Source: a virus
Taxonomy: Duplodnaviria; Heunggongvirae; Uroviricota; Caudoviricetes
DNA: 26,878 bases
Direction: 5' to 3' (one strand)
IMG/VR virus record: IMGVR_UViG_2698536476_000007
Shown: piece by piece, positions 1 through 26,878 of the stretch
Layout of the letters: the number at the start of each line of letters is the position of its first letter
Numbering within the stretch: position 1 is the first letter of the stretch
Translations under genes and position numbers: made by a program
Notes under the pieces: model-generated
Seen by the model: the letters and a program-made list of their open reading frames with translations, nothing else
Database searches by the model: none
Told to the model about the DNA's origin: nothing

Positions 1-36
1 CGTGGCTTTCCGCCAACCAATCAGGAGGTGGCAACC

Positions 37-264
37 ATGCTGGGATACCGTTCGGTGAATGCAGCGGTGGAGCATCTTCGCGCACTGGAGAAAAAAGGCG
101 TCATCACGATAAAGCGTGGCGTGGCCCGGGGGATAACTCTTCATACCGCGGTGAAGGACGACGACAGCGAGGCGGTCGGGATTATCCGCGCACTGCTTGC
201 CGGTGAGGAAAACGCCAGGCTGCGTGCAGCCCACTGGTTACATGAGAGGGGCCTGAAAGTATGA
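37..264 (+). CDS. LexA-like winged-HTH DNA-binding protein, possibly 5'-truncated (frame is open from position 1)
   Basis: Motif [33 protein letters not shown] resembles the LexA N-terminal recognition helix and wing ([23 protein letters not shown]...SRGIRL). AGGAGG at 23-28 precedes ATG 37, but the HTH would normally need about 30 more N-terminal residues. Confidence 0.4.
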
Positions 265-650
265 AGCTGATCTTGCCTTTCCCTCCCAGCGTGAACACGT
301 ACTGGCGACACCCCAACAAAGGGGCGTTTGCTGGTAAGAGTCTGATAAGCGCAGCGGGGCGCAAATTCCAGAGCGCGGCGTGCGCAGCAATAGTTGAGCA
401 GTTACGTCGTCTGCCGAAACCAACGTCGGCACCTGCTTCAGTGGAGATCGTGTTGTTTCCTCCGGATAACCGGATCCGCGATCTGGACAACTATAACAAG
501 GCGCTGTTTGACGCCCTGACCCATGCGGGTGTGTGGGAAGACGACAGTCAGGTGAAAAGAATGCTGGTGGAGTGGGGACCGGTTATCCCGAAAGGGAAGG
601 TCGAGATCACTATCAGTAAGTACGAGAAAACGGCGGGTGCAGCCGCCTGA
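261..650 (+). CDS. rusA: Crossover junction endodeoxyribonuclease RusA (Holliday junction resolvase)
   Basis: 129 aa; '[13 protein letters not shown]' and '[28 protein letters not shown]' match the RusA family (LPWPPSNNRYY...RRRDLDN...K..FDALT.AG.W.DD.QV). Start overlaps the upstream stop. Confidence 0.9.
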
Positions 651-669
651 TCAAGAGGAGAAACGAAGT

Positions 670-1479
670 ATGAATAATCTGATGGTCATTGATGGTATTG
701 AAGTTCGTCGTGATGCTTATGGGCGTTACAGCCTGAACGATCTGCATCGCGCAGCAGTAGCATCTGGTGCAAATGCCAGAACCAAGGAGCCGGGAAAGTT
801 TCTTTCCAGCCAACAAACTGTTGAGCTTGTTCATGAATTGACCAACACCCAGAATTTGGGTGTTGACCCGGTGAGTGTGATTCATGGGGGAAATGAACGG
901 GGAACGTATGTCTGCAAGGAACTGGTGTATGCCTATGCAATGTGGATCAGCCCGTCATTCCATCTGAAGGTGATCCGTACTTTCGATATGGTAACCAGCG
1001 CACCGGAAAAATTATCCGGACAGGCTGCTGACAAGATGCAGGCTGGCGTGATCCTGCTGGACTTTATGCGCCGGGAGTTAAACCTGTCTAACTCTTCAGT
1101 GCTTGGTGCCTGTCAGAAACTCCAGGAGGCTGTTGGCTTACCGAATCTGGCACCGCGCTATGCCATTGATGCTCCTGCTGATGCACACGATGGCTCAAGT
1201 CGCCCGACACTGTCACTGAGTGCACTGCTGAAACAGTATGGTATACGCCTGACGGCTAATCAGGCATATCACCAGATGGTGAAACTGGGGATCGTCGAGC
1301 AGCGCGAACGATACAGCCGTACAGCGATTAACAACATCAAAAAATTCTGGTCGCTGACAGCGAAAGGTTGCATGTTCGGCAAGAACATCACCAGTCCCGC
1401 AAATCCGCGCGAGACGCAGCCGCATTTCTTCGAATCCCGATTCCCTGAGCTGTTAAAGCTACTCGATACCGTTCATTGA
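670..1479 (+). CDS. KilA-N domain protein (antirepressor-like)
   Basis: N-terminus MNNLMVIDGIEVRRDAYGRYSLNDLHRAA is KilA-N/APSES-like. AGAGGAG RBS at 654-660 precedes ATG 670; the ORF track's 637 start is a GTG inside rusA. Confidence 0.6.
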   Translation: MNNLMVIDGIEVRRDAYGRYSLNDLHRAAVASGANARTKEPGKFLSSQQTVELVHELTNTQNLGVDPVSVIHGGNERGTYVCKELVYAYAMWISPSFHLKVIRTFDMVTSAPEKLSGQAADKMQAGVILLDFMRRELNLSNSSVLGACQKLQEAVGLPNLAPRYAIDAPADAHDGSSRPTLSLSALLKQYGIRLTANQAYHQMVKLGIVEQRERYSRTAINNIKKFWSLTAKGCMFGKNITSPANPRETQPHFFESRFPELLKLLDTVH

Positions 1480-1480
1480 G

Positions 1481-2476
1481 GTGACCGTGAGAGCACTACT
1501 GACCCCTGAAATTGCCCCGCGTATGGGGATCGTATTGTTCAGGCCAGGTTCAGAGCTGATGCCCCTGTTTATGCAGGGGCGTGTCCTGCTGGAGCCAGAG
1601 CCGGAACGTTATTCATCTTTCGCCAGTGGTGCCGTTCCGGCGGCAACACAACCGCTGGCGGATGATCCTGCCGTTCGGACCGTGTTCCGCAATGAGGCAG
1701 TGATCCGTCGTGCTGGTGGCGTGGAATGTCATGAAAGCTGGTTACTTCGTGAAAAGGGCTGTCAGTGGCCTCATTCTGACTGGCACAGCGAGAACATGAC
1801 CACAATGCGGCACGCTCCGGGAGCAATTCGTCTGTGCTGGCACTGCGATAACCAGCTGCGTGACCAGTTCACGGAACGGCTGGAATCAATGGCAACGGAT
1901 AACTGTGCCCGCTGGGTGTTGTCTGTCGTGCGTCGGGATCTCGGTTTTGATGACAGTCACGTTGTGACAATGCCGGAACTGTGCTGGTGGCTGGTTCGTA
2001 ATGATCTGGCGGATGCCTTACCGGAAAGTGCAGCCCGTAAGGCACTGAGATTACCGAAGCCTGTTGTGCCATCTGTCACCCGGGAAAGTGACCTTGTGCC
2101 TTCGGTTCCTGCCACCAGCATCATCCAGGATAAGGCGAAAAAGGTGCTGGCGCTGAAAGTGGATCCGGAGTCGCCGGAGTCTTTTATGTTACGCCCAAAA
2201 CGTCGCCGCTGGGTTAATGAAAAGTACACGCGCTGGGTTAAGACGCAGCCGTGTGCATGTTGTGGAAAGCCTGCTGATGATCCCCACCATCTGATAGGCC
2301 ACGGTCAGGGGGGAATGGGTACAAAAGCGCATGATCTCTTTGTGTTGCCTTTGTGCAGAAAGCATCACGACGAGCTGCATGCGGATACCGTGGCATTTGA
2401 AGAGAAGTATGGCTCCCAGCTGGAGTTGATATTTCGTTTTATCGATCGTGCGCTGGCAATTGGTGTGCTGGCCTGA
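1481..2476 (+). CDS. DUF968-family phage protein (YdfU-like) with C-terminal HNH-like Cys/His cluster
   Basis: C-terminal 'CACCGKPADDPHHLIGHG...LCRKHHDELH' is the conserved DUF968 Cys/His motif found in nin-region proteins of lambdoid prophages. GTG start; an alternative GTG at 1487 has a better-spaced GAGG. Confidence 0.6.
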   Translation: MTVRALLTPEIAPRMGIVLFRPGSELMPLFMQGRVLLEPEPERYSSFASGAVPAATQPLADDPAVRTVFRNEAVIRRAGGVECHESWLLREKGCQWPHSDWHSENMTTMRHAPGAIRLCWHCDNQLRDQFTERLESMATDNCARWVLSVVRRDLGFDDSHVVTMPELCWWLVRNDLADALPESAARKALRLPKPVVPSVTRESDLVPSVPATSIIQDKAKKVLALKVDPESPESFMLRPKRRRWVNEKYTRWVKTQPCACCGKPADDPHHLIGHGQGGMGTKAHDLFVLPLCRKHHDELHADTVAFEEKYGSQLELIFRFIDRALAIGVLA

Positions 2477-2493
2477 TTTTGTGGAGAAAGTTG

Positions 2494-2850
2494 ATGCGTG
2501 ATATGTATGAAGTAATGGATCGTTGGGGAGCTTGGGCTGCTTCAGACAATAGCGGAGTGGACTGGCAGCCGATAGCGGCTGGTTTCAAGGGACTTTTACC
2601 TCATGGCAAAAAGTCACGGATTCAGTGTGATGATGACGAAGGCATCATGATAGACAGTTGTGTGGCTCGGTTGAGAAGGTATAAACCAGAGGAATATGAG
2701 CTCATCATCGCCCACTTTGTTATCGGTATCTCATTACGCACTATTGCGAAGAAGAGAAAATGCTCTGATGGCACAATTAGGAAGGAACTGCAAACTGCAA
2801 TGGGGTTTGTTGACGGCTGTTTAGCAATGTTAGCTTATAGTATGGCATAA
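2494..2850 (+). CDS. Q: Late-gene antitermination protein Q (phage 82/21-type)
   Basis: 'VMDRWGAWAA...WQPIAAGFKGLLP...SRIQCDDDEG' matches the 82-type Q family (LERWGAWAA...IAAGFKGL...CCDDD). Sits immediately upstream of the lysis cassette. GGAG at 2483-2486 precedes ATG 2494. Confidence 0.75.
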   Translation: MRDMYEVMDRWGAWAASDNSGVDWQPIAAGFKGLLPHGKKSRIQCDDDEGIMIDSCVARLRRYKPEEYELIIAHFVIGISLRTIAKKRKCSDGTIRKELQTAMGFVDGCLAMLAYSMA

Positions 2851-4044
2851 AAAATAAAATAGATTTACTGCCGATTTTTCAAAAAAGACTGGGAACTGTT
2901 TATATCCAACGTAAATAAGGCCTCCATAAAACATGGCTGATGCGAGATATTTAACAGTTCTCATCCTTTTTTTAGCTTTATCAATCAAACCTGTAATGCT
3001 ACTCTTAATACTATCTGCATTATCTTTGATTTCTTTATTTTCTTCAAACTTTAAATACTTATCGAAAGCGGACTCCACTCGAGAACGTAAGTTGTCGAAT
3101 GTTTCATTGAATATCTCAATAGAAATGTAATTGACTTTTTTTATCATCCAAAGTCCTGCGATAATCAATATTGCTTCGGTTGTTTCATTAGCCTTCACTA
3201 AGCCACCAGCAGCTATTAATGCACCGGGAATAGTCAATGCTTTTGTCTGATTAGATGATATGAATTCGTTAATTTTACTCGTGAACTCAAGATTTTTCTC
3301 ATCGAGTTCGTTAAGAATTTTATTTACAGAAAACCTCTTTGTGTAAATCTCATATAGTTCATCATATTTTTTCCTGACGAGTTCAGTAGAGTTAAGCAAG
3401 TCAAAGAAATTGAACGTACCATTTGCTTTAAATACTTCGTTTATGGCTGAGCGTATAACGAGCTTGCGCTCGCTTTTGTGTAAATCATTGATTTTTATTG
3501 TGTCGAGAAGCTCCTTTATAATTTCATATTTAAGAGACGAGTTCGATAAGCGATTAATCTCGCTATATTGTAAAAAATGCGTGAGTTCGACTGTATAACT
3601 TTTGTCTTCATTGGTGAAAAATAAGACAGAGCAGTCACTGTTATGATGATCAGCAATTAATGAAAGGATATCTTTCCACATAAAGAAAATATGGATTTTT
3701 TCGATGCTTTCATTCTTAGAAGTAGGGAGTATTAACGGCGTTCCGATGATATAATTTTTCGGAAGAGCGTTTTGGGTGTTTACTCTAGACCAAAAAGACT
3801 CAACATTCTCATAAATTATAGCGTCATCCCAAGATGAAGCTTGGCGATCTAGCCAAATTTCATTATTTTCGATGCAGGTTGTTGCCTTTTTATAACCTAT
3901 AGATTGTAACAGTCTAATTATTTCAGAACTATTTACAATAACAATGCTTTCTTCAAGACTTATGACAGTGTAGTAGCCCTCAACTCTGCTTGAGGCTCCG
4001 TTAATAATCTGCGCTAATCTTGATAAGTCATCAGCAATTGTCAT
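2830..4044 (-). CDS. Hypothetical protein, 404 aa; soluble N-domain plus C-terminal hydrophobic helices; downstream gene of the AT-rich cargo operon (candidate effector)
   Basis: Uninterrupted 1.2 kb ORF in very AT-rich DNA, where long ORFs are unlikely by chance. Start ATG lies 2 nt after the upstream gene's TAA (translational coupling). Hydrophobic stretches LTIPGALIAAGGLV, AILIIAGLWMI and YLASAMFYGGLIYVGY near the C-terminus. No family recognised. Confidence 0.8.
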   Translation of the reverse strand: MTIADDLSRLAQIINGASSRVEGYYTVISLEESIVIVNSSEIIRLLQSIGYKKATTCIENNEIWLDRQASSWDDAIIYENVESFWSRVNTQNALPKNYIIGTPLILPTSKNESIEKIHIFFMWKDILSLIADHHNSDCSVLFFTNEDKSYTVELTHFLQYSEINRLSNSSLKYEIIKELLDTIKINDLHKSERKLVIRSAINEVFKANGTFNFFDLLNSTELVRKKYDELYEIYTKRFSVNKILNELDEKNLEFTSKINEFISSNQTKALTIPGALIAAGGLVKANETTEAILIIAGLWMIKKVNYISIEIFNETFDNLRSRVESAFDKYLKFEENKEIKDNADSIKSSITGLIDKAKKRMRTVKYLASAMFYGGLIYVGYKQFPVFFEKSAVNLFYFLCHTIS

Positions 4045-4046
4045 TA

Positions 4047-5222
4047 TTAGCTGTCTCTATATCTTTTGAGTTCATCATAATTTGCCTGACTCAATTTTAT
4101 CACAATTTCGCATTTGTTGTCAGTGAGAATTACAGGCTTATTTGACTTTTCGTCTCCAATAGCTCCACGCATTATTTTCAACTTAAAATTATTGTCGTTA
4201 TCTGCCACTTCAATTGTAAGCGCGCTTTCAGCTGCTTTAGGAGTTGGTTCAAATTGAGGGTCAATCTGGAAACCATTAAGATTAACAAAATCGACAAACG
4301 TTCCCTTACATTTGTGTGAATCAGTCAGGCATGAGTCAATTATTTTTGAAATATCCTCTATCTTAACGGACTTATTTCCGTGTTTATCTTTTGATTTTTT
4401 TTCCAGTAAGGATTTAACTTCATTGTCAATAGTATCACGCAGTACACGACCGAGTGAGTTTTTACTAGCAAAAATATCTATAGCACTGAATAATTGCTGA
4501 ATGCTTCTTTTATTGTCCGAATCATGTCGGCAACCTAATGAGTCTTTGAAAAAATCGCTTTTAGATTTACCTTGCAAGAAATGTACATATGAGTCACCCT
4601 TGTTTTCTGGATAACTGGCTTCGAATAAAGTTAAATCGAACATCGCAGCCTGCCGTAAGGCATCGGTATTAATTGGATTTAATCTTGTTGGGGTCAACTT
4701 ATCCGAATCAAAGTCATAGGCGCTTTGTTTATCAACCATTACGATTAGAAGTTTCCCCAAATCCTCTGGTTCGGTAGACTTATAGTGGATGAAAACAACG
4801 CTCCCCCCCTGAAGTTGGGCAACTCTCGATTCGTTATTAGCATTATGTTTAAGCTTCTCTATTATAGCTCTAGATAAATCAATGAATTCATTATTTTTAT
4901 TAATGTATTTTTTTAGGATCGTAGGAATGGATGAAGGGTTGTGATCTGAGTCTAGGAAGTTATGAAATTTGTTTTTTCGGCTAAATTTTTTCTCAATTCT
5001 GGTTATGAATTCAGATGTGACTTCATTTTTTAGATCCCAAACTTCACCTAATCGATAATCAAATGCTCTTGAATCATTTTTTTCAAGATTTGCTGTTACA
5101 GCACCAATAGGAAAGTACGATTGTTTGCCCAGCACTACAACATGAGGCGTGGCACCGCATTTATCGCAAGCTACAGTTGGGTCGTCAAGAACATTGCCAC
5201 ATTCTAAACAAGTTATATCCAT
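4047..5222 (-). CDS. Hypothetical protein, 391 aa; N-terminal CxxC-x10-CxxC zinc ribbon plus NdpA/YejK-like region; upstream gene of the cargo operon (candidate sensor/DNA binder)
   Basis: Long ORF in AT-rich DNA. N-terminus CLECGNVLDDPTVACDKCG. Central 'GGSVVFIHY...LLIVMV...NPINTDALRQAAMFDLTLFE...YVHFLQGKSKSDFF' parallels the NdpA motif series GGFVLFCHY...LLVAVL...DLTEWE...YLTFLKGRVGRKVADFF, as recalled from memory. Confidence 0.8.
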   Translation of the reverse strand: MDITCLECGNVLDDPTVACDKCGATPHVVVLGKQSYFPIGAVTANLEKNDSRAFDYRLGEVWDLKNEVTSEFITRIEKKFSRKNKFHNFLDSDHNPSSIPTILKKYINKNNEFIDLSRAIIEKLKHNANNESRVAQLQGGSVVFIHYKSTEPEDLGKLLIVMVDKQSAYDFDSDKLTPTRLNPINTDALRQAAMFDLTLFEASYPENKGDSYVHFLQGKSKSDFFKDSLGCRHDSDNKRSIQQLFSAIDIFASKNSLGRVLRDTIDNEVKSLLEKKSKDKHGNKSVKIEDISKIIDSCLTDSHKCKGTFVDFVNLNGFQIDPQFEPTPKAAESALTIEVADNDNNFKLKIMRGAIGDEKSNKPVILTDNKCEIVIKLSQANYDELKRYRDS

Positions 5223-5228
5223 TATATA

Positions 5229-5265
5229 TCCCGAATTATAAGAATGAATTTTTATGTGGCTGAAA
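5229..5265 (-). promoter_or_regulatory. Candidate promoter for the cargo operon (perfect TATAAT -10 on the - strand at 5235-5240)
   Basis: The - strand reads ...TTCAGCCACATAAAAATTCATTCT-TATAAT-TCGGGATATATA-ATG. Perfect -10 hexamer in an AT-rich, UP-like context; the -35 is weak (TTCAGC) and the leader is very short. Confidence 0.3.
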
Positions 5266-5341
5266 ATTCTATCAAAACACTAACGCGTACGCAAAAAGTA
5301 TTGTATTGTGTTAAGAGTGGTTACTTCGCCACACAGCTTAA

Positions 5342-5368
5342 ACCCGCCGTCGAGCGGGTTTTGTCGTT
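5342..5368 (+). terminator. Intrinsic terminator hairpin (ACCCGC-cgtcga-GCGGGT + TTTGTCGTTT), possibly tR'-like for a short Q-dependent leader RNA
   Basis: Perfect 6-bp GC-rich stem followed by a T-rich tract on the + strand, between the Q-proximal region and the holin gene. Confidence 0.5.
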
Positions 5369-5513
5369 TCTGGGCCTGGGGATTCGTTGGGCCTAGTCTA
5401 TCCCGCAGTTATCCATTGGCTCGGCTTCTTTGACGTTTCCGCTTCTGATTTGCGGTACATGATGTTTCCTCAATTTGCACCTGCTGTATCAGCGAGGTGA
5501 GAGATAACTACAA

Positions 5514-5840
5514 ATGCCTCATAACCCAAATACTTGGCTGGAGTTGGTCCAGAGCTGGTGGCGTGGAGACACACCGCTGGGCGCAGTGATTATGTCGATC
5601 GTTATGGCTGGCTTGCGCATTGCCTATTTTGGCGGTGGTGGTGGCTGGAAGAGAAAAACGCTCGAGATTTTGCTCTGTGGCGCTCTGACGCTGACCTTTG
5701 CATCCGCGCTTGAGTATGTCGGATGGCCTAAATCGCTTTCTGTTGCCATTGGTGGTGGCGTTGGGTTGATCGGTGTCGATGCTATTCGTGGGGCTGCAAT
5801 GAGAGTAATCGGTAACAAGTTTGGTGGCTCTAAGGAGTAA
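5514..5840 (+). CDS. S: Holin (lambda S-like, class I)
   Basis: 108 aa with hydrophobic helices; 'GAVIMSIVMAGLRIAYFGGGGGWKRKTLEILLCGALTL' resembles lambda S. Directly upstream of the R endolysin. Confidence 0.85.
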   Translation: MPHNPNTWLELVQSWWRGDTPLGAVIMSIVMAGLRIAYFGGGGGWKRKTLEILLCGALTLTFASALEYVGWPKSLSVAIGGGVGLIGVDAIRGAAMRVIGNKFGGSKE

Positions 5841-5843
5841 TTT

Positions 5844-6320
5844 ATGCAGGTACTAAATTCCCAGCGTAAAGCTTTCCTGGATATGGTGGCATGGTCAGAA
5901 GGAACGGATAACGGGCGACAACCGACACGTAACCACGGTTATGACGTTATTGTCGGTGGCGAACTCTTCACTGATTACTCCGATCACCCTCGCAAACTTG
6001 TCACGCTAAACCCGAAACTCAAATCAACAGCTGCAGGCCGTTATCAACTTCTTTCACGTTGGTGGGATGCTTACCGCAAGCAGCTTGGGCTGAAAGACTT
6101 CTCTCCCAGAAGCCAGGACTCAGTGGCATTACAGCAGATTAAAGAGCGTGGCGCTTTACCGATGATTGACCGCGGCGATATTCGTCAGGCAATCGACCGT
6201 TGCAGCAATATCTGGGCTTCACTGCCGGGCGCTGGTTATGGTCAGTTCGAGCATAAGGCTGACAGCCTGATTGCAAAATTCAAAGAAGCGGGCGGAACGG
6301 TCAGAGAGATTGAGGTATGA
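5844..6320 (+). CDS. R: Endolysin, lytic transglycosylase (lambda R)
   Basis: 158 aa, near-identical to lambda R across its length ([79 protein letters not shown]...). Confidence 0.95.
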
Positions 6321-6754
6321 GCAGAGTCACCGCGATTATCTCCGCTCTGGTTATCTGCATCATCGTCTGCCTGTCATGGGCTGTTAATCATTACCGTGAT
6401 AACGCCATGACCTACAAAGAGCAGCGCGATAAAGCCGCATCCATCATCGCTGATATGCAGAAGCGTCAACGTGATGTAGCAGAACTCGACGCCAGATACA
6501 CAAAGGAGCTTGCTGATGCTAACGCGACTATCGAAAGTCTCCGTGCTGATGTTTCTGCTGGTCGTAAGCGCCTGCAAGTCGCCGCCACCTGTGCAAAGTC
6601 AACGACCGGAGCCAGCAGCATGGGCGATGGAGAAAGCCCAAGACTTACAGCAGATGCTGAACTCAATTATTACCGTCTCAGAAGTGGAATCAACAGGATA
6701 ACCGCGCAGGTTAACTACCTGCAGGAATACATCAGGACGCAATGCCTGAAATGA
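6317..6754 (+). CDS. Rz: i-spanin Rz
   Basis: N-terminus [30 protein letters not shown] is essentially identical to lambda Rz; C-terminus 'QCLK'. Confidence 0.9.
6516..6701 (+). CDS. Rz1: o-spanin Rz1 (lipoprotein), embedded in the +1 frame of Rz
   Basis: AAGGAG RBS at 6503-6508 precedes ATG 6516. Signal peptide [20 protein letters not shown] with lipobox Cys, then a proline-rich stretch ([13 protein letters not shown]) as in lambda Rz1. Confidence 0.75.
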
Positions 6755-6789
6755 TCGGGCGATGAAAACCAAAAAAACAGGAGCAATAC

Positions 6790-7065
6790 ATGACTAAGCT
6801 TTATCACCGCATCTCAGCTTTTCTCTCTGGGTGCTGGGCGTTTATCACGTCTATTTCGTTCGTCATCTTTAGTTTCGGTAGCACAGCATGCTCGCTTAGT
6901 CGGGGTCTGTGGCGTGCTATTTCAGCACTAGCGCCGAAATTTTTACCTGAAAAGGTTGTTTGGCGAATTGTAGAGCGAATGTGTAGTGAGAGCGTTCGCG
7001 AGAAGATTAACGTATTTGGACGTCATCCTCGAAATACAGGCGCATTGTGCAGTTCGTTACTGTAG
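6790..7065 (+). CDS. Hypothetical small protein with hydrophobic N-terminal region (moron position downstream of Rz)
   Basis: CAGGAG RBS 8 nt upstream of the ATG; hydrophobic segment AFITSISFVIFSF; followed by a hairpin at 7074-7100. No family recognised. Confidence 0.4.
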   Translation: MTKLYHRISAFLSGCWAFITSISFVIFSFGSTACSLSRGLWRAISALAPKFLPEKVVWRIVERMCSESVREKINVFGRHPRNTGALCSSLL

Positions 7066-7073
7066 TCATTACA

Positions 7074-7100
7074 AAGCCCATCTTTGGGTTTGGTTTGTAA
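7074..7100 (+). terminator. Hairpin with trailing T-rich tract (possible weak terminator) downstream of the 6790-7065 ORF
   Basis: AAGCCCA-tctt-TGGGTTT stem (one G-T wobble) followed by GGTTTGTAATTT. Confidence 0.3.
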
Positions 7101-7183
7101 TTTCGCTGCTGCAATAATCACCAGAAATATGGCATTGTAATTGGTGGTCATATGTCATACCCATCAATTACAAAGGAGCAGAC

Positions 7184-7435
7184 ATGTCATCTACAAAATT
7201 AGTTAAAACTATCCTTTTCCATGGAGATAATAAATATGAAGTTTATGCAACCTCCGAGTACGCTGACGTAGATAGAATCATTCATTACAAGTTACGCTCA
7301 TGTAAAAACACAGATGGTTCAGATGGCAAGTCTGAATCTATATGGGTTGTATATAATCCTGCTGTTCAACTACCGGATGATCTGAACTACAAAAAAGTTA
7401 GCAACATAGCTCCTTATCTTGAAAAGTTACAATAA
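7184..7435 (+). CDS. Hypothetical 83-aa protein; AT-rich moron with its own RBS and terminator
   Basis: AGGAG RBS 6 nt upstream of the ATG; AT-rich codon usage unlike flanking phage genes; intrinsic terminator immediately downstream. No family recognised. Confidence 0.55.
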   Translation: MSSTKLVKTILFHGDNKYEVYATSEYADVDRIIHYKLRSCKNTDGSDGKSESIWVVYNPAVQLPDDLNYKKVSNIAPYLEKLQ

Positions 7436-7457
7436 ACTTCCTTTTCCACATGCTAAA

Positions 7458-7483
7458 AGCCTCGTATTCGCGGGGCTTTTTAT
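7458..7483 (+). terminator. Intrinsic terminator after the 7184-7435 moron
   Basis: GCCTCG-tattcg-CGGGGC stem (one G-T wobble) followed by TTTTTATT. Confidence 0.55.
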
Positions 7484-7493
7484 TGTCATTACA

Positions 7494-7519
7494 AAAGCCA
7501 CTCCCTACAGAGTGGCTTT
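7494..7519. terminator. Perfect 10-bp hairpin (AAGCCACTC-cctaca-GAGTGGCTT); possible opposite-strand or bidirectional terminator partner
   Basis: Perfect inverted repeat; on the - strand the stem is followed by TTTTGTAATG. Confidence 0.3.
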
Positions 7520-7647
7520 GATAATGGTTTATACCCTACACGGGATAACTTAACTGATATCCCTTTTAACGGATAAACGGAGCCAACAATGGCAGAGAAT
7601 GTCGGCATTATGGCAGTTAAATTTGGATAAATCGGAGATTAGTACAT

Positions 7648-7998
7648 ATGCCGCCACGAATCCCGAAAGCCTGCCGTGCTCGAGGTTGCCGTAATACCAC
7701 CACTGACCCGTCAGGCTATTGCGAAAGCCACAAAAGCGAAGGCTGGAAGCAATACAAACCTGGACAATCCCGTCATCAGCGCGGCTACGGTTCGAAGTGG
7801 GACAGTATCCGCGCGCGTGTCCTGAAGCGTGACAAAGGCCTGTGTCAGTTATGTCTGCGTTCTGGTGTGGTGCGTGAGGCGAAAACTGTTGACCACATCA
7901 TCCCTAAAGCGCATGGCGGCACTGATGCTGACAGTAATCTGCAGAGTCTGTGCTGGCCGTGTCATAAGGCGAAGACGGCCCGTGAACGGTTAAAGTGA
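7648..7998 (+). CDS. HNH endonuclease (packaging-associated, upstream of terminase)
   Basis: Cys pairs (CRARGC...C) plus 'VDHIIPKAHGGTDADSNLQSLCWPCHKAK' is the HNH motif; classic HNH-cos-TerS-TerL arrangement of HK97-like phages. Confidence 0.85.
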   Translation: MPPRIPKACRARGCRNTTTDPSGYCESHKSEGWKQYKPGQSRHQRGYGSKWDSIRARVLKRDKGLCQLCLRSGVVREAKTVDHIIPKAHGGTDADSNLQSLCWPCHKAKTARERLK

Positions 7999-8018
7999 TA
8001 ATAATTCTCAACTGTCTG

Positions 8019-8086
8019 AGGGGAGGGGCGGGTCAAATCCCTGTGACCTGACGTCTTCCGGACTGCCCGCCCCATCGTTTTTTTAT
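8019..8086. other. Candidate cos/packaging-initiation region (GC-rich inverted repeat GGGGCGGG...CCCGCCCC followed by a T7 run)
   Basis: Located in the HNH-to-terminase-small intergenic gap where HK97-like phages carry cos. 8-bp perfect inverted repeat separated by 33 bp, then ATCGTTTTTTTAT. Confidence 0.3.
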
Positions 8087-8123
8087 ACCCGCGAAAAATG
8101 AAATTTAACCAGGAGTGCCGCAT

Positions 8124-8618
8124 ATGGCTGGAACGGCGGGGCGTTCCGGGCGTCGCCCCAAGCCAACGGCGCGCAAGGCGCTGGCCGGAAACCCCGGCAA
8201 GCGAGCCCTGAATAAAGATGAACCTGTTTTTACGCCCATCAAAGGTGTTGAGCCACCGGAGTGGTTCGCAGAAGAAAATCTCCCTCTCGCCACGATCATG
8301 TGGCAACTGACAACCAAAGAACTCTGCGGTCAGGGCCTGTTGTGCGTGACTGACCTCGCGGTGCTTGAGCGGTGGTGCGTGGCCTATGAGTTCTGGCGAC
8401 GTGCCGTGAAAAATATTGCCATACAGGGCAACACCATCACCGGTGCAATGGGCGGCAGGGTCAAAAATCCGGAGCTGACCGCCAAAAAAGAACAGGAGTC
8501 CGAGATGAGCAGCACGGGGGCAATGCTCGGACTCGACCCCAGCAGCCGCCAGCGTCTGATTGGCCTGGCGGGGCAGAAGAAAGCCACTAACCCGTTTCTG
8601 AAAATCATCGAGTCATGA
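8124..8618 (+). CDS. Terminase small subunit (P27 family-like)
   Basis: AGGAG RBS at 8111-8115 precedes ATG 8124; basic N-terminus and position immediately upstream of, and overlapping, the large terminase subunit. Confidence 0.8.
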
Positions 8619-24974: not shown

Positions 24975-25760
24975 ATGCATCGTATAGACACGAAAACCGC
25001 GCAGAAGGATAAGTTCGGCGCGGGTAAGAACGGTTTTACCCGTGGTAACCCCCAGACTGGCACGCCTGCCACCGATCTGGATGATGACTACTTTGATATG
25101 TTGCAGGAAGAACTCTGCAGCGTGGTGGAGGCATCCGGTGCCAGCCTGGAGAAGGCGCGGCACGACCAGTTGCTTACCGCGCTTCGTGCGCTGCTGTTAA
25201 GCCGCAAGAATCCGTTTGGCGATATCAAATCGGATGGCACGGTGAAAACGGCTCTCGAAAACCTTGGTTTGGGAGAAGGCTCTGCATTACCTGTTGGTGT
25301 GCCTGTTCCATGGCCTTCAGCCACACCGCCAACAGGCTGGCTGAAATGCAACGGTGCGGCATTTTCTGCTGAAGAATACCCGGAACTGGCAAAGGCTTAC
25401 CCGACCAATAAATTGCCTGATTTACGTGGTGAGTTTATTCGTGGCTGGGATGATGAACGTGGTGTGGATAGTGGGCGAACTCTGCTTTCAGCGCAAGGAG
25501 ATGCTATTCGAAACATTACTGGCGGTTTTGGTCAGTTGCGCGTAAACAGCGAAATTAATGCAATTGTCGATGTTCAAAGTGTGAGTGGGGCTTTTTACGG
25601 AGGTACCTCAGTCCGGAATAACATCAATGTATCTATGACATACGCTAATGACCGAAAAATCCGACAAGATGTTCACTTCTCGGCGGCAAATGTTGTTCCA
25701 ACAGCAAATGAAAATCGTCCACGTAACATCGCCTTTAATTATATTGTGAGGGCCGCATGA
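24975..25760 (+). CDS. Tail fibre protein (constant N-terminal part plus variable C-terminal part with tail-collar-like motif)
   Basis: 261 aa; C-terminal '[22 protein letters not shown]...[19 protein letters not shown]' is the phage tail-collar motif; followed by a Tfa gene with ATGA overlap; contains a hix-like site at 25252-25277. Confidence 0.75.
25252..25277. other. Candidate site-specific inversion crossover site (hix/gix/cix-like 26-bp dyad: CTCTCGAAAACC-TT-GGTTTGGGAGAA)
   Basis: Matches the Hin/Gin/Cin/Pin site architecture (12-bp half-sites with AAACC/GGTTT flanking a 2-bp core) and lies inside the tail-fibre gene at the expected constant/variable junction. Confidence 0.5.
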
Positions 25761-26362
25761 TGAATAAAGCTGTATTGAATAGCGAACTCATTGCCATAAA
25801 AGCGGGAGACATTATCATTTATAATTATGATGGTGAAACGCGGGAATATATTTCTACATCAACTGAATATCTCGCTGTCGGCGTCGGTATCCCGGCATGT
25901 TCCTGTTTGGATGCACCAGGTACACATAAAGCTGGTTATGCAATCTGTCGCTCTGTAGATTTAAATTCATGGGAATATGTGCCAGACCATCGCGGTGAAG
26001 TTGTCTATAGTACCGAAACGGGAGATACCAAAGAAATCACAGTTCCGGGTGATTACCCGGAAAATACAACCACTATAGCCCCATTAACGCCATACGATAA
26101 ATGGGATGGTGAGAAATGGGTGACCGATACTGAGGCACAGCATAGCGCCGCAGTAGACGCGGCAGAAGCACAGCGTCAGTCACTGATTGATACTGCAATG
26201 GCTTCCATTAGTCTGATTCAACTGAAATTGCAGGCCGGGCGGAAGCTGATGCAGACAGAAAACACCCGACTTAACGCTGTGCTGGATTACATTGACGCGG
26301 TGACGGCAACAGATACCAGCACCGCGCCGGACGTCATCTGGCCTGAACTGCCGGAGGCGTAG
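25757..26362 (+). CDS. Tail fibre assembly protein (Tfa)
   Basis: 201 aa; conserved Tfa C-terminus '...[24 protein letters not shown]'; ATGA overlap with the tail-fibre gene. Confidence 0.8.
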
Positions 26363-26753
26363 GCCATTCAATATCTGGCGCACCGGAAGTATCGACCAGT
26401 TCCAGTGCGTCCAGATAATCCAGCCACAAATTATATTGCGCCAGTTCCTCACCTTTCAGGCGACCAATCGCCGCTTTACCTGGCCATTGTCTGCTGTTCA
26501 TGTGCTCGTTGGCTTCATTAATAAGTTTTCTTTTTTTCAAATCCGCCAATGCAATAAGGTTTTCTTTTGATAAAGGTGGTTGCTCTGTCAAAACCGGATA
26601 TCCCTCCTGATTGCTGACTATTTTCATGCCATTATCCTGACCATCCAGTAGTAACAGCCATTCATCCGTGGTTATCTCAACAGCATCTGAAGGTGCTTTA
26701 TTTAAATCGGTAAAAAAACCATTTTCTTTTTGTGAATAGAAGTATCTATCCAT
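26334..26753 (-). CDS. Tail fibre assembly protein, alternative copy (Tfa') on the opposite strand
   Basis: 139 aa; shares the conserved C-terminal Tfa motif '[26 protein letters not shown]' with the + strand Tfa; convergent with 3' ends overlapping, as in invertible tail-fibre segments (Mu G, P1 C, e14 P). Confidence 0.8.
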   Translation of the reverse strand: MDRYFYSQKENGFFTDLNKAPSDAVEITTDEWLLLLDGQDNGMKIVSNQEGYPVLTEQPPLSKENLIALADLKKRKLINEANEHMNSRQWPGKAAIGRLKGEELAQYNLWLDYLDALELVDTSGAPDIEWPTPPAVQAR

Positions 26754-26878
26754 TTATTAATCTCCAAAAGCAATGAACCGCCCCGGTTTTCCTGGAGAGT
26801 GTTTTATCTGTGAACTCAGGCTGCCAGATCATCGTTTCTGATGGAAGCATAATAAGCTTTTTCTGCTTCTGCCGGAGG
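26747..26878 (-). CDS. 3' end of an alternative tail-fibre variable segment (Sv'), truncated by the window edge
   Basis: The - strand frame is open from the window edge to TAG at 26747-26749, ending 8 nt into the Tfa' start; orientation and position match the alternative fibre exon of an invertible segment. Translation not independently recognised. Confidence 0.35.

Follow-up and report, generated by a model that had tools for sequence, protein, structure and literature searches.

In the PANGU defence systems, a YejK-like protein sitting on the host chromosome signals the destruction of that chromosome by phage nucleases: in the proposed model, this nucleoid-associated protein (NAP) comes off the degraded DNA and activates a membrane effector, leading to abortive infection (bioRxiv 10.64898/2026.04.06.716658, April 2026). 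Type II PANGU consists of the NAP Pag2A and the membrane effector Pag2B. Both genes are needed and the outcome is abortive infection; once a cell is infected, the NAP departs from the nucleoid, and it binds a domain of the effector with nanomolar affinity (KD 19 nM). The cryo-EM and biochemistry of that preprint concern type I only, where the N-terminal residue K6 of the NAP touches the effector, and PANGU operons were reported beside defence genes including Gabija.

A second system, DS-1 (proteins DS-1A and DS-1B; working id D390), was described in the DefensePredictor study (Science 2026, PMC13092281; bioRxiv 2025.01.08.631726). The pair was cloned, together with its native promoter region, into a low-copy plasmid and, in a replicated assay, defended E. 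coli against T1-like, T5-like and T7-like phages. Table S7 of that study reports reduced plating for Bas1 (about 10^7.6-fold), Bas26, Bas3, T3, T5 and T7, the effect on T5 and T7 being about 10-fold; the phages hit are thus T1-like (Bas1, Bas3), T5-like (T5, Bas26) and T7-like (T3, T7). T4 was part of the panel, yet the table contains no T4 entry for DS-1. The accessible parts of the paper list the 'YejK nucleoid-associated domain' among the domains newly validated in defence. We found no published mechanism for DS-1 itself, and these parts of PMC13092281 give none.

We analysed a window of 26,878 nucleotides of tailed-phage DNA, in which the gene at 4047-5222 (minus strand) encodes a 391-residue nucleoid-associated anti-phage protein with a predicted N-terminal zinc ribbon and a YejK/NA37 domain. 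The reading frame opens with ATG and has no other start codon upstream in frame. Its product is identical to DS-1A (WP_000355468.1) at 391/391 residues, passes the NCBIfam model NF053868 (DS1_1_antiphage; 451.4 bits, cut-off 330) and belongs to PHROG 3767. The gene of its effector partner, the 404-residue DS-1B, lies at 2830-4044 (minus strand) and begins 2 nt past the DS-1A stop codon, with the junction TAA-TA-ATG. The DS-1B protein is 100% identical to WP_000150292.1, agrees with the 399 residues given in the table of PMC13092281, passes NF053869 (DS1_2_antiphage; 375.2 bits, cut-off 315) and belongs to PHROG 5023. Cassette length (2393 bp, here and in PMC13092281), gene order and protein sequences are all those of the published system, with no difference at the protein level. 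The published source is the E. coli contig NZ_RRVY01000002.1, whereas in the window the neighbours of the pair are Q and the holin gene of a lambdoid prophage, a setting that goes unmentioned in the accessible parts of PMC13092281. By its sequence, the gene is that of DS-1A, which supplies the YejK/NdpA-family half of the two-gene anti-phage system DS-1. Both products are named as anti-phage proteins in the newest RefSeq annotation, and NCBIfam equivalog models exist for both. PADLOC-DB v2.0.0 matched neither DS-1A nor DS-1B, which says nothing against a defence role because this library dates from 2023 and predates the description of DS-1. The initial annotation, made from the letters alone, had seen in this fusion in phage cargo an unusual candidate sensor of invading DNA. 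The observation is correct and already known, and if 'unusual' is taken to mean new, the word does not apply: the same protein pair had been tested and named.

The YejK/NdpA (NA37) fold occupies 4077-5117 (minus strand; codons of DS-1A residues 36-382), as delimited by Pfam, HHpred, and an AlphaFold2 (AF2) model searched with Foldseek. Pfam PF04245 (NA37) matches residues 64-376 with 84.5 bits (cut-off 24.6, E = 1.2e-23) and positions 27-318 of the 325 in the model, and HHpred places the YejK region at residues 42-382 with probability 1 (Table S5 of PMC13092281). The sole phmmer match of DS-1A in the PDB is E. coli YejK 9be2 (E = 1.2e-9), and this is also the only significant Foldseek match in the PDB of the AF2 model (pLDDT 85.8, pTM 0.80), with E = 1.9e-14, probability 1.0 and 360 aligned columns. 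The global TM-score of the model against 9be2 is 0.43-0.49, a low value that probably results from a differing domain orientation. The initial annotation had named a series of NdpA/YejK motifs at about residues 150-240. The motifs pair as it proposed in the phmmer alignment to 9be2 (GGSVVFIHY with GGFVLFCHY, DLTLFE with DLTEWE, YVHFLQG..KSKSDFF with YLTFLKGRVGRKVADFF), and the resemblance is real but was drawn too narrowly, since the homology extends over about residues 36-382. Among homologues, the alignment shows conservation of the motifs IEKKFxRKNKFH, LLIVMVDK, DALRQAA and SDFFKxxLGC. DS-1A scores 81.4 bits with the NCBIfam YejK equivalog NF001557, for which the cut-off is 341; judged from these profiles, it is a member of the YejK family and not a YejK orthologue.

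Pfam returned only noise for DS-1B (SWIB, CdvA, UPF0184, E > 0.09), and its organization was read from the AF2 model and from family alignments. A soluble alpha/beta N-terminal domain (3400-4044, minus strand; residues 1-215) is modelled with a pLDDT of about 90 and, by analogy with the DMK domain of Pag2B, is a candidate docking ('DNA-mimic') domain for DS-1A. Its net charge of -7 and pI of 5.3 make it moderately acidic, which is ordinary for a cytoplasmic protein; the domain is negative in all 42 DS-1B homologues (-1 to -19, mean -8.2, pI 5.2). It is followed by a long helix and a hydrophobic helical hairpin (ALTIPGALIAAGGLV / EAILIIAGLWMI; 3121-3387, minus strand; residues 220-308), where the alignment shows the strongest conservation in DS-1B, with family-averaged hydropathy peaks at residues 269-285 and 288-308. 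A C-terminal hydrophobic helix (LASAMFYGGLIYVGY; 2893-2955, minus strand; residues 364-384) keeps its hydropathy across the family. The AF2 helices run over residues 220-269, 271-284, 288-331 and 337-383, and the C-terminal part has a net positive charge. The three family-conserved hydrophobic helices (269-285, 288-308 and 364-384) are short and moderate, with Kyte-Doolittle maxima of about 1.5-1.7. Foldseek found nothing significant for the DS-1B model in the PDB (best E-value 0.3). The alpha-pore-forming toxins AhlB, MakA, SmhB and ClyA recur among its non-significant matches. A CorA-like or ClyA-like architecture is a lead only.

The architecture of the pair resembles that of type II PANGU, and by this analogy the two systems may share a mechanism. 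In the uninfected cell, the host chromosome would hold DS-1A non-specifically, away from DS-1B. Degradation of the chromosome by the phage would free DS-1A, which could then bind the acidic N-terminal domain of DS-1B. Binding would switch on the C-terminal hydrophobic helices of the effector, damaging the membrane and stopping the infected cell by abortive infection. The early stages of infection by T5 and T7 include breakdown of the host DNA. As a whole, the explanation of DS-1 as a moron-borne pair acting by PANGU-like release from a damaged host chromosome onto a membrane effector is in our judgment the probable one.

The tight coupling of the two genes, which are 2 nt apart here and overlap in most homologues, would also suit the reverse logic of toxin-antitoxin systems. 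DS-1A would then keep DS-1B inactive, and infection would remove or titrate it, either by host shut-off and turnover or by sequestration on abundant phage DNA, thereby freeing a membrane toxin. Many membrane effectors of abortive infection are indeed kept in check by a partner, and the nanomolar binding between NAP and effector in type II PANGU could be read in this way. However, the PANGU-Ecu genes are singly non-toxic and both are required for defence. Furthermore, in type I a NAP unable to bind DNA made the pair toxic, implying that the free NAP activates the effector rather than inhibiting it (bioRxiv 10.64898/2026.04.06.716658). Control of DS-1B by inhibition is thus unlikely, and activation by a released DS-1A is the reading that we retain.

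Preceding the YejK fold, DS-1A carries a four-Cys zinc-ribbon-like motif, CxxC-x10-CxxC (5157-5210, minus strand; codons of residues 5-22), with cysteines at residues 5, 8, 19 and 22. Residues 1-40 are acidic (pI 4.35). All Pfam zinc-ribbon models were sub-threshold on DS-1A: Zn_Ribbon_1 with 13.4 bits against 25 (E = 0.07), DZR with 12.6 against a gathering score of 27.3, and Zn_ribbon_3 with 11.2 against 27. Since no Pfam gathering score was reached, the case for a ribbon is made from cysteine conservation. The accessible parts of PMC13092281 hold a single line on the subject, an HHpred assignment of the N-terminus to NinF/Zn_Beta_Ribbon at 86% in the supplementary Table S5. The signature was present in 48 of 88 full-length homologues, in 29 distinct versions in which just the four cysteines are invariant and all 14 other positions vary. 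The zinc-ribbon signature and the conservation of its cysteines, which the initial annotation had made a touchstone of this reading, both stand. The CxxC-x10-CxxC spacing is also present in distant marine homologues, and a CxxC...CxC variant is found in Pantoea, Phytobacter, Morganella and Proteus. Other clades have an acidic tail in place of the ribbon, or no extension at all, and across the family the net charge of the N-terminal extension ranges from 0 to -10 and is never positive. In the AF2 model, the ribbon region forms short paired strands of low confidence, and a flexible linker joins this appendage to the rest of the protein. The four-Cys ribbon thus appears to be a conserved yet dispensable accessory of DS-1A's clade, with zinc binding predicted from sequence.

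These properties bear on what DS-1A might sense. Protection by 10^7-fold against Bas1 and by about 10-fold against T5 and T7 has no obvious explanation in a generic trigger by genome damage. DS-1A, with its zinc ribbon, might instead recognise incoming or replicating phage DNA, or its structure or modification state, and activate DS-1B in response. The selectivity of DS-1 (10^7.6-fold for Bas1, no T4 entry) suits such a phage-specific cue better than damage to the host genome, and DNA binding by the YejK family, shown for Pag1A, is in its favour. Yet, the DNA binding of Pag1A is sequence-independent and requires fragments of >200 bp, and Pag2A occupies the host nucleoid in uninfected cells but departs from it during infection (bioRxiv 10.64898/2026.04.06.716658). 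The ribbon and its replacements are acidic or neutral and some clades lack an extension, a poor fit to a DNA-reading module. We thus hold direct sensing of phage DNA to be rather improbable, if slightly less so than toxin-antitoxin-like control. As for the ribbon itself, a function as an extra DNA-binding element is unlikely, because the extension is acidic or neutral family-wide and is lost in whole clades; its acidity makes modulation of protein-protein contacts, or competition with DNA, the likelier role. The initial annotation was right to place the gene in phage defence, but its sensor of invading DNA is not what published work on the class points to, in which PANGU YejK-like proteins watch the host chromosome.

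The N-terminal appendage could tentatively be seen as a cis-acting regulator: as a DNA mimic or latch within the same molecule, it would vie with DNA, or with the acidic domain of the effector, for the binding face of the NAP. It would so set the threshold of the trigger, and possibly the phage spectrum. We consider this doubtful; it is compatible with an appendage that is never basic, with the flexible linker, and with the contact between K6 of the NAP and the effector in type I cryo-EM. The idea of a regulatory appendage is addressed neither in the accessible parts of the DefensePredictor paper nor in those of the PANGU preprint. In Enterobacterales and several marine clades the appendage is an acidic four-Cys ribbon; in its place, members of the Pseudomonas clade have a disordered tail, likewise acidic.

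The DS-1 pair forms a moron, a cargo cassette carried by a lambdoid prophage, as its description as phage cargo in the initial annotation had anticipated. The cassette has low GC; it is flanked on one side by the Q antiterminator gene and on the other by the holin/lysis genes, and its transcription runs opposite to theirs. The upstream region (5223-5290, minus strand) contains sigma-70-like hexamers, found by consensus scan and direct reading (TTGATA-16-AAAAAT at 5275-5248 and TATAAT at 5240-5235), and is presumed from these motifs to be the cassette's own promoter; the published construct carried the native promoter region and was active (PMC13092281). In 21 of 21 genome loci with a continuing contig, a DS-1B homologue lies directly downstream of the NAP gene. 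Two further loci, found starting from the DS-1B side, bring the adjacency, with the same gene order, to 23/23 checkable loci. The paired genes mostly overlap or are <=17 nt apart, and this strict pairing spans Gammaproteobacteria and one Betaproteobacterium (Vogesella). Distant DS-1 homologues adjoin genes for BrxR, AbiEii and Gabija-like proteins. No match to the cassette came up when 50,697 phage records were searched by megablast, and tblastn found only standalone NdpA-like genes of ~20% identity, in F116-like Pseudomonas phages.

The position of the cassette next to Q and the lysis genes, together with these standalone phage genes, could suggest that the native role of the pair is not defence: a nucleoid protein and a membrane protein might serve the prophage in lysogeny, silencing or lysis timing, the plasmid phenotype being incidental. 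Against this stand the protection of up to 10^7-fold, obtained in a heterologous setting from the native promoter region and replicated (PMC13092281), the location of distant homologues in defence islands and not in prophages, and the foreign GC and opposite orientation typical of a moron. We find a role other than defence highly improbable.

The DS-1A case provides a calibration point for the genome scan: a reader of raw sequence recognised the fusion of a zinc ribbon with YejK in prophage cargo and guessed defence, and the identical pair has since been validated. Nucleoid proteins as sentinels of chromosome integrity are a topical subject, but one already published for DS-1A's class. What we add is the invariance of the cysteines, the replacement or loss of the ribbon between clades, the never-basic appendage, and the adjacency of the two genes.

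Among known proteins, E. coli YejK/NdpA (9be2; PF04245) shares its fold and motifs with DS-1A over about 340 residues, at ~18% identity. It is a standalone chromosomal gene, whereas DS-1A is prophage-borne and in an operon with an effector. Nothing in the aligned part of 9be2 corresponds to the N-terminal four-Cys ribbon, and YejK has no room for the 35-residue extension, because residue 64 of DS-1A aligns to residue 34 of YejK, in a chain of 338 residues. Type I PANGU (Pag1A with the GRel toxSAS Pag1B) has in common with DS-1 a YejK-like sensor which, in the proposed logic, comes off the nucleoid and binds an acidic DNA-mimic domain of the effector, but Pag1B is an alarmone synthetase and not a membrane protein. 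Type II PANGU, like DS-1, is a two-gene operon with the YejK-like NAP gene first and a non-NAP effector second. In its effector, an acidic domain lies at the N-terminus and a transmembrane domain at the C-terminus; DS-1B has a moderately acidic N-domain and C-terminal helices of moderate hydrophobicity. One example comes from E. coli, and loci related to DS-1 also adjoin Gabija and other defence genes. The text of the PANGU preprint makes no mention of zinc, ribbon, DS-1 or DefensePredictor, and our likening of DS-1 to PANGU-Ecu is by architecture and description, not by sequence. The two also differ in their assays: PANGU-Ecu was assayed on T4 under IPTG and blocked it, whereas DS-1 acts on T1-, T5- and T7-like phages and has no entry for T4.

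The window is a lambdoid prophage with a GC content of about 55%. Its genes include those for RusA, KilA-N, a DUF968 protein and antiterminator Q, followed by holin, lysozyme and spanin, an HNH endonuclease, terminase, portal, and an HK97-type protease and capsid. The stretch flanked by Q (2479-2850, +) and the holin gene (5514-5840, +) has only 34-39% GC. The existence of a 391-aa minus-strand ORF in this low-GC stretch (4047-5222), starting at its furthest-upstream in-frame start codon, indicates that the gene flagged in the initial annotation, which we call DS-1A, is real. Sigma-70-like hexamers lie upstream of it, and a 2-nt spacer (the junction reads TAA-TA-ATG) separates it from the gene of its 404-aa partner DS-1B (2830-4044, -).

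Other features of the region were observed. Q (stop at 2848-2850) and DS-1B (stop at 2830-2832) overlap convergently at their 3' ends over 21 bp (2830-2850), and the final seven Q codons therefore overlap the end of DS-1B. A strong, terminator-like hairpin, AAACCCGC...GCGGGTTT with a T-run after it (5340-5361, +), separates the cassette from the holin gene. It may be a tR'-type terminator of the late leader, which would place the insertion point of the cassette between Q and the late promoter region that depends on Q. A second GC dip (0.43-0.44, positions 6500-8000), between the lysis genes and the HNH and terminase genes, contains small ORFs, including 7184-7435 (+), annotated as hypothetical, and 6790-7065 (+), which has no annotation in the RefSeq record; it may be another cargo slot. 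At the right end (25000-26878) GC content is 0.47-0.49, and a 139-aa ORF (26334-26753, -) opposes the direction of the tail genes.

The cassette is an already known and named system, DS-1. Both proteins pass NCBIfam equivalog models, DS1_1_antiphage ('nucleoid-associated anti-phage protein') for DS-1A (451 against 330 bits) and DS1_2_antiphage for DS-1B (375 against 315 bits), and the newest PGAP labels of the two genes are 'nucleoid-associated anti-phage protein' and 'anti-phage protein'. These model names derive from the DefensePredictor study (Science 2026, PMC13092281; bioRxiv January 2025), whose supplementary tables define DS-1 (D390 is its working id) by the proteins WP_000355468.1 and WP_000150292.1, encoded at 220602-222994 of E. 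coli NZ_RRVY01000002.1. The published segment and our cassette (2830-5222) are equal in length, 2393 bp. DS-1A agrees with WP_000355468.1, as printed in that study, at each of its 391 residues, and DS-1B is identical to the RefSeq-annotated WP_000150292.1.

The defence role guessed from sequence is thus borne out, because the identical pair is anti-phage (Table S7, PMC13092281). Carried on a low-copy plasmid, DS-1 was active from its native promoter region, with -log10(EOP) values of 7.6 for Bas1, 2.7 for Bas26, 1.7 for both Bas3 and T3, 1.0 for T5, 0.9 for T7 and about 0 for SECphi27, where the effect was limited to small plaques. Bas01-Bas13 belong to the T1-like Drexlerviridae, Bas26 to the T5-like Markadamsvirinae. 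PMC13092281 proposes no mechanism for the system. Its main text lists the 'YejK nucleoid-associated domain' among newly defence-validated domains, and its HHpred table assigns residues 42-382 of DS-1A to YejK/NA37 (probability 1) and residues 3-26 to a NinF-type zinc beta-ribbon (86%), so that both halves of the initial observation were already on record there.

Our analyses agree on the relationship of DS-1A to NdpA/YejK. Residues 64-376 score 84.5 bits in Pfam NA37 (PF04245), whose gathering score is 24.6, and the one entry returned by phmmer among all PDB sequences is E. coli YejK (9be2, E = 1.2e-9), in an alignment that pairs the motifs named in the initial annotation. An AlphaFold2 model built from 51 homologues (pLDDT 85.8, pTM 0.80, low confidence in residues 1-35 only) has 9be2 as its sole significant Foldseek match in the PDB (E = 1.9e-14, probability 1.0, 360 aligned columns). 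The homology proposed for residues 150-240 therefore stands, and its restriction to them does not, since it covers essentially all of the protein beyond residue 36. With 81 bits, below the 341-bit cut-off of the NCBIfam YejK equivalog, DS-1A is classed by sequence as a member of the YejK family, not a YejK orthologue. Separately, F116-like Pseudomonas phages (H66, LKA5, phiC725A, F116, Epa33, E220 and Atpa001; matches H28-H39) encode an NdpA/YejK-like protein of about 20% identity, according to the annotation under the match.

The zinc ribbon is an aspect of DS-1A treated neither in PMC13092281, beyond the HHpred line, nor in the preprint on PANGU systems (bioRxiv, April 2026, 10.64898/2026.04.06.716658). 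The motif CxxC-x10-CxxC is present as first described (Cys 5, 8, 19 and 22) and recurs in 48 of 88 full-length homologues. Its cysteines are conserved: across 29 distinct versions they are the only invariant positions, the other 14 showing 2-10 residue types each. The same or nearly the same spacing occurs in Marinospirillum, Aliidiomarina, Thalassotalea, Halioglobus and the distant loci L024 and L025, and a CxxC...CxC variant in Pantoea, Phytobacter, Morganella and Proteus. Some clades do without the ribbon. A Vibrio/Pseudoalteromonas/Marinomonas clade lacks any N-terminal extension, and a Pseudomonas/Stutzerimonas clade (P0091-P0118; L004-L006, L008-L010) has in its place an apparently disordered tail of 20-40 residues, rich in Asp and Glu (up to 11 acidic and 0-3 basic residues). 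What is conserved in the appendage therefore seems to be its negative charge, not the ribbon fold. Across the alignment, net charges of the extension lie between 0 and -10 (mean -4.1), with no positive value, which argues against an auxiliary DNA-binding role. It is unlikely that the ribbon reads DNA, and we favour, speculatively, protein contact or competition with DNA. In the type I PANGU cryo-EM structure, residue K6 of the nucleoid-associated protein (NAP) forms a salt bridge with the effector (10.64898/2026.04.06.716658), which, read speculatively, places the NAP N-terminus near the relevant interface.

The two genes travel together. Among 22 genome loci encoding a DS-1A relative, all 21 in which the contig continues have a DS-1B homologue directly downstream on the same strand. 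The loci come from Enterobacterales, Pseudomonas, Stutzerimonas, Oceanimonas, Marinomonas, Pseudoalteromonas, Thalassotalea, Aliidiomarina, Halioglobus and Vogesella, and the pairs mostly overlap or lie at most 17 nt apart. Starting instead from two distant DS-1B homologues (24-30% identity), an NA37 gene overlaps the effector start in both. One pair, on a 2.6-kb contig (L003, JAATEZ010000277.1), has a NAP 48% identical to DS-1A without the Cys motif at its predicted start; the contig is binned as a 'Lactobacillales bacterium' MAG, and since all remaining relatives are from Proteobacteria, mis-binning seems a likelier explanation than a Firmicute host.

Of 5426 complete E. coli genomes, 106 contain the cassette, every copy with at least 99% identity, and 99 of the 106 keep the Q-cassette-holin arrangement. 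Some natural copies appear inactivated: in O103 WL1467 (L001, NZ_CP193491.1) a 1-bp insertion near codon 331 (about window position 4232) shortens the DS-1A C-terminus, the gene being annotated as a 996-bp CDS, and in strain S1-ZIM-01-A the region matching 2400-5900 is in two pieces, with an IS1 transposase annotated under the match. The homologous pair of Pseudescherichia vulneris adjoins a DUF968 gene, the same prophage slot, and another (L017) lies beside an integrase. In Pseudomonas sp. NUPR-001 (L004), the pair is accompanied by an AAA_15/21 ATPase and, about 3.5 kb away, by a T7-type single-subunit RNA polymerase gene (1-2370, -; Pfam RNA_pol and RPOL_N), suggesting an unusual mobile element or phage-derived island. 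The distant pairs of L025 and L024 are in defence islands, the former beside a Gabija-like OLD-TOPRIM ATPase, a UvrD helicase and a BrxR/WYL regulator (771-2492 and 1-771 (-), 7705-8565 (-)), the latter beside an AAA_21/AAA_15 ATPase and AbiEii (6617-8323 and 9578 onward).

DS-1B belongs to a sizeable family: when 1.84 billion cluster representatives were searched with a profile, 772 relatives scored E <= 1e-3, and 364 scored E <= 1e-10. Its model (pLDDT 86) has three parts: an alpha/beta domain that reaches from residue 1 to about residue 215, a long helix, and a helical hairpin followed by more long helices up to the C-terminus. In each of the 42 aligned homologues the N-domain carries a negative net charge (mean -8.2, pI 5.2); the C-terminal part carries a positive one. 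The best-conserved block is 226-284 (KYDELYE..FSVNK..TSKINE..TKALTIPGALIAxG), and family-averaged hydropathy reveals three hydrophobic helices (269-285, 288-308, 364-384) of only moderate hydrophobicity. Structure searches with DS-1B returned no significant match, only sub-threshold generic bundles and CorA-like or alpha-pore-forming-toxin-like folds. Residues 220-331 recurrently showed a weak, non-significant likeness to the hydrophobic-hairpin 'head' of the ClyA family (AhlB, MakA, SmhB, ClyA) and to CorA-type channels; if true, this resemblance would hint at the way DS-1B attacks the membrane.

PANGU systems provide a published mechanism for this class of proteins. At rest, their YejK-like NAP (PagA) sits on the chromosome through non-specific binding; once phage nucleases break down the host genome, freed PagA binds and activates the effector PagB through an acidic 'DNA-mimicking' domain, leading to abortive infection (10.64898/2026.04.06.716658). 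The effectors of type I are GRel alarmone synthetases; those of type II (Pag2B) combine an acidic domain at the N-terminus with a transmembrane domain at the C-terminus. In a type II system from E. coli, both genes were required and each alone was non-toxic; T4 infection moved Pag2A-GFP off the nucleoid, and Pag2A bound the Pag2B N-domain with a KD of 19 nM, the subsequent activation of Pag2B being left unexplained (10.64898/2026.04.06.716658). The text of this preprint mentions neither DS-1, DefensePredictor nor zinc.

By analogy with this related system, it is fairly probable that DS-1 uses a PANGU-type mechanism. The defence role first attributed to DS-1A holds, but its cue is more likely to be loss of host chromosome integrity than the invading DNA first proposed. 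T5 and T7 break down host DNA, and a spectrum of T5-, T7- and T1-like phages therefore fits such a trigger. The missing T4 entry for DS-1 in Table S7 and the extreme effect on Bas1 caution against treating the analogy as proof (PMC13092281). DS-1 is likened to type II PANGU by architecture, not sequence: with 'DNA mimic' and 'TM' features as tentative candidates, the layout of DS-1B is consistent with that of Pag2B.
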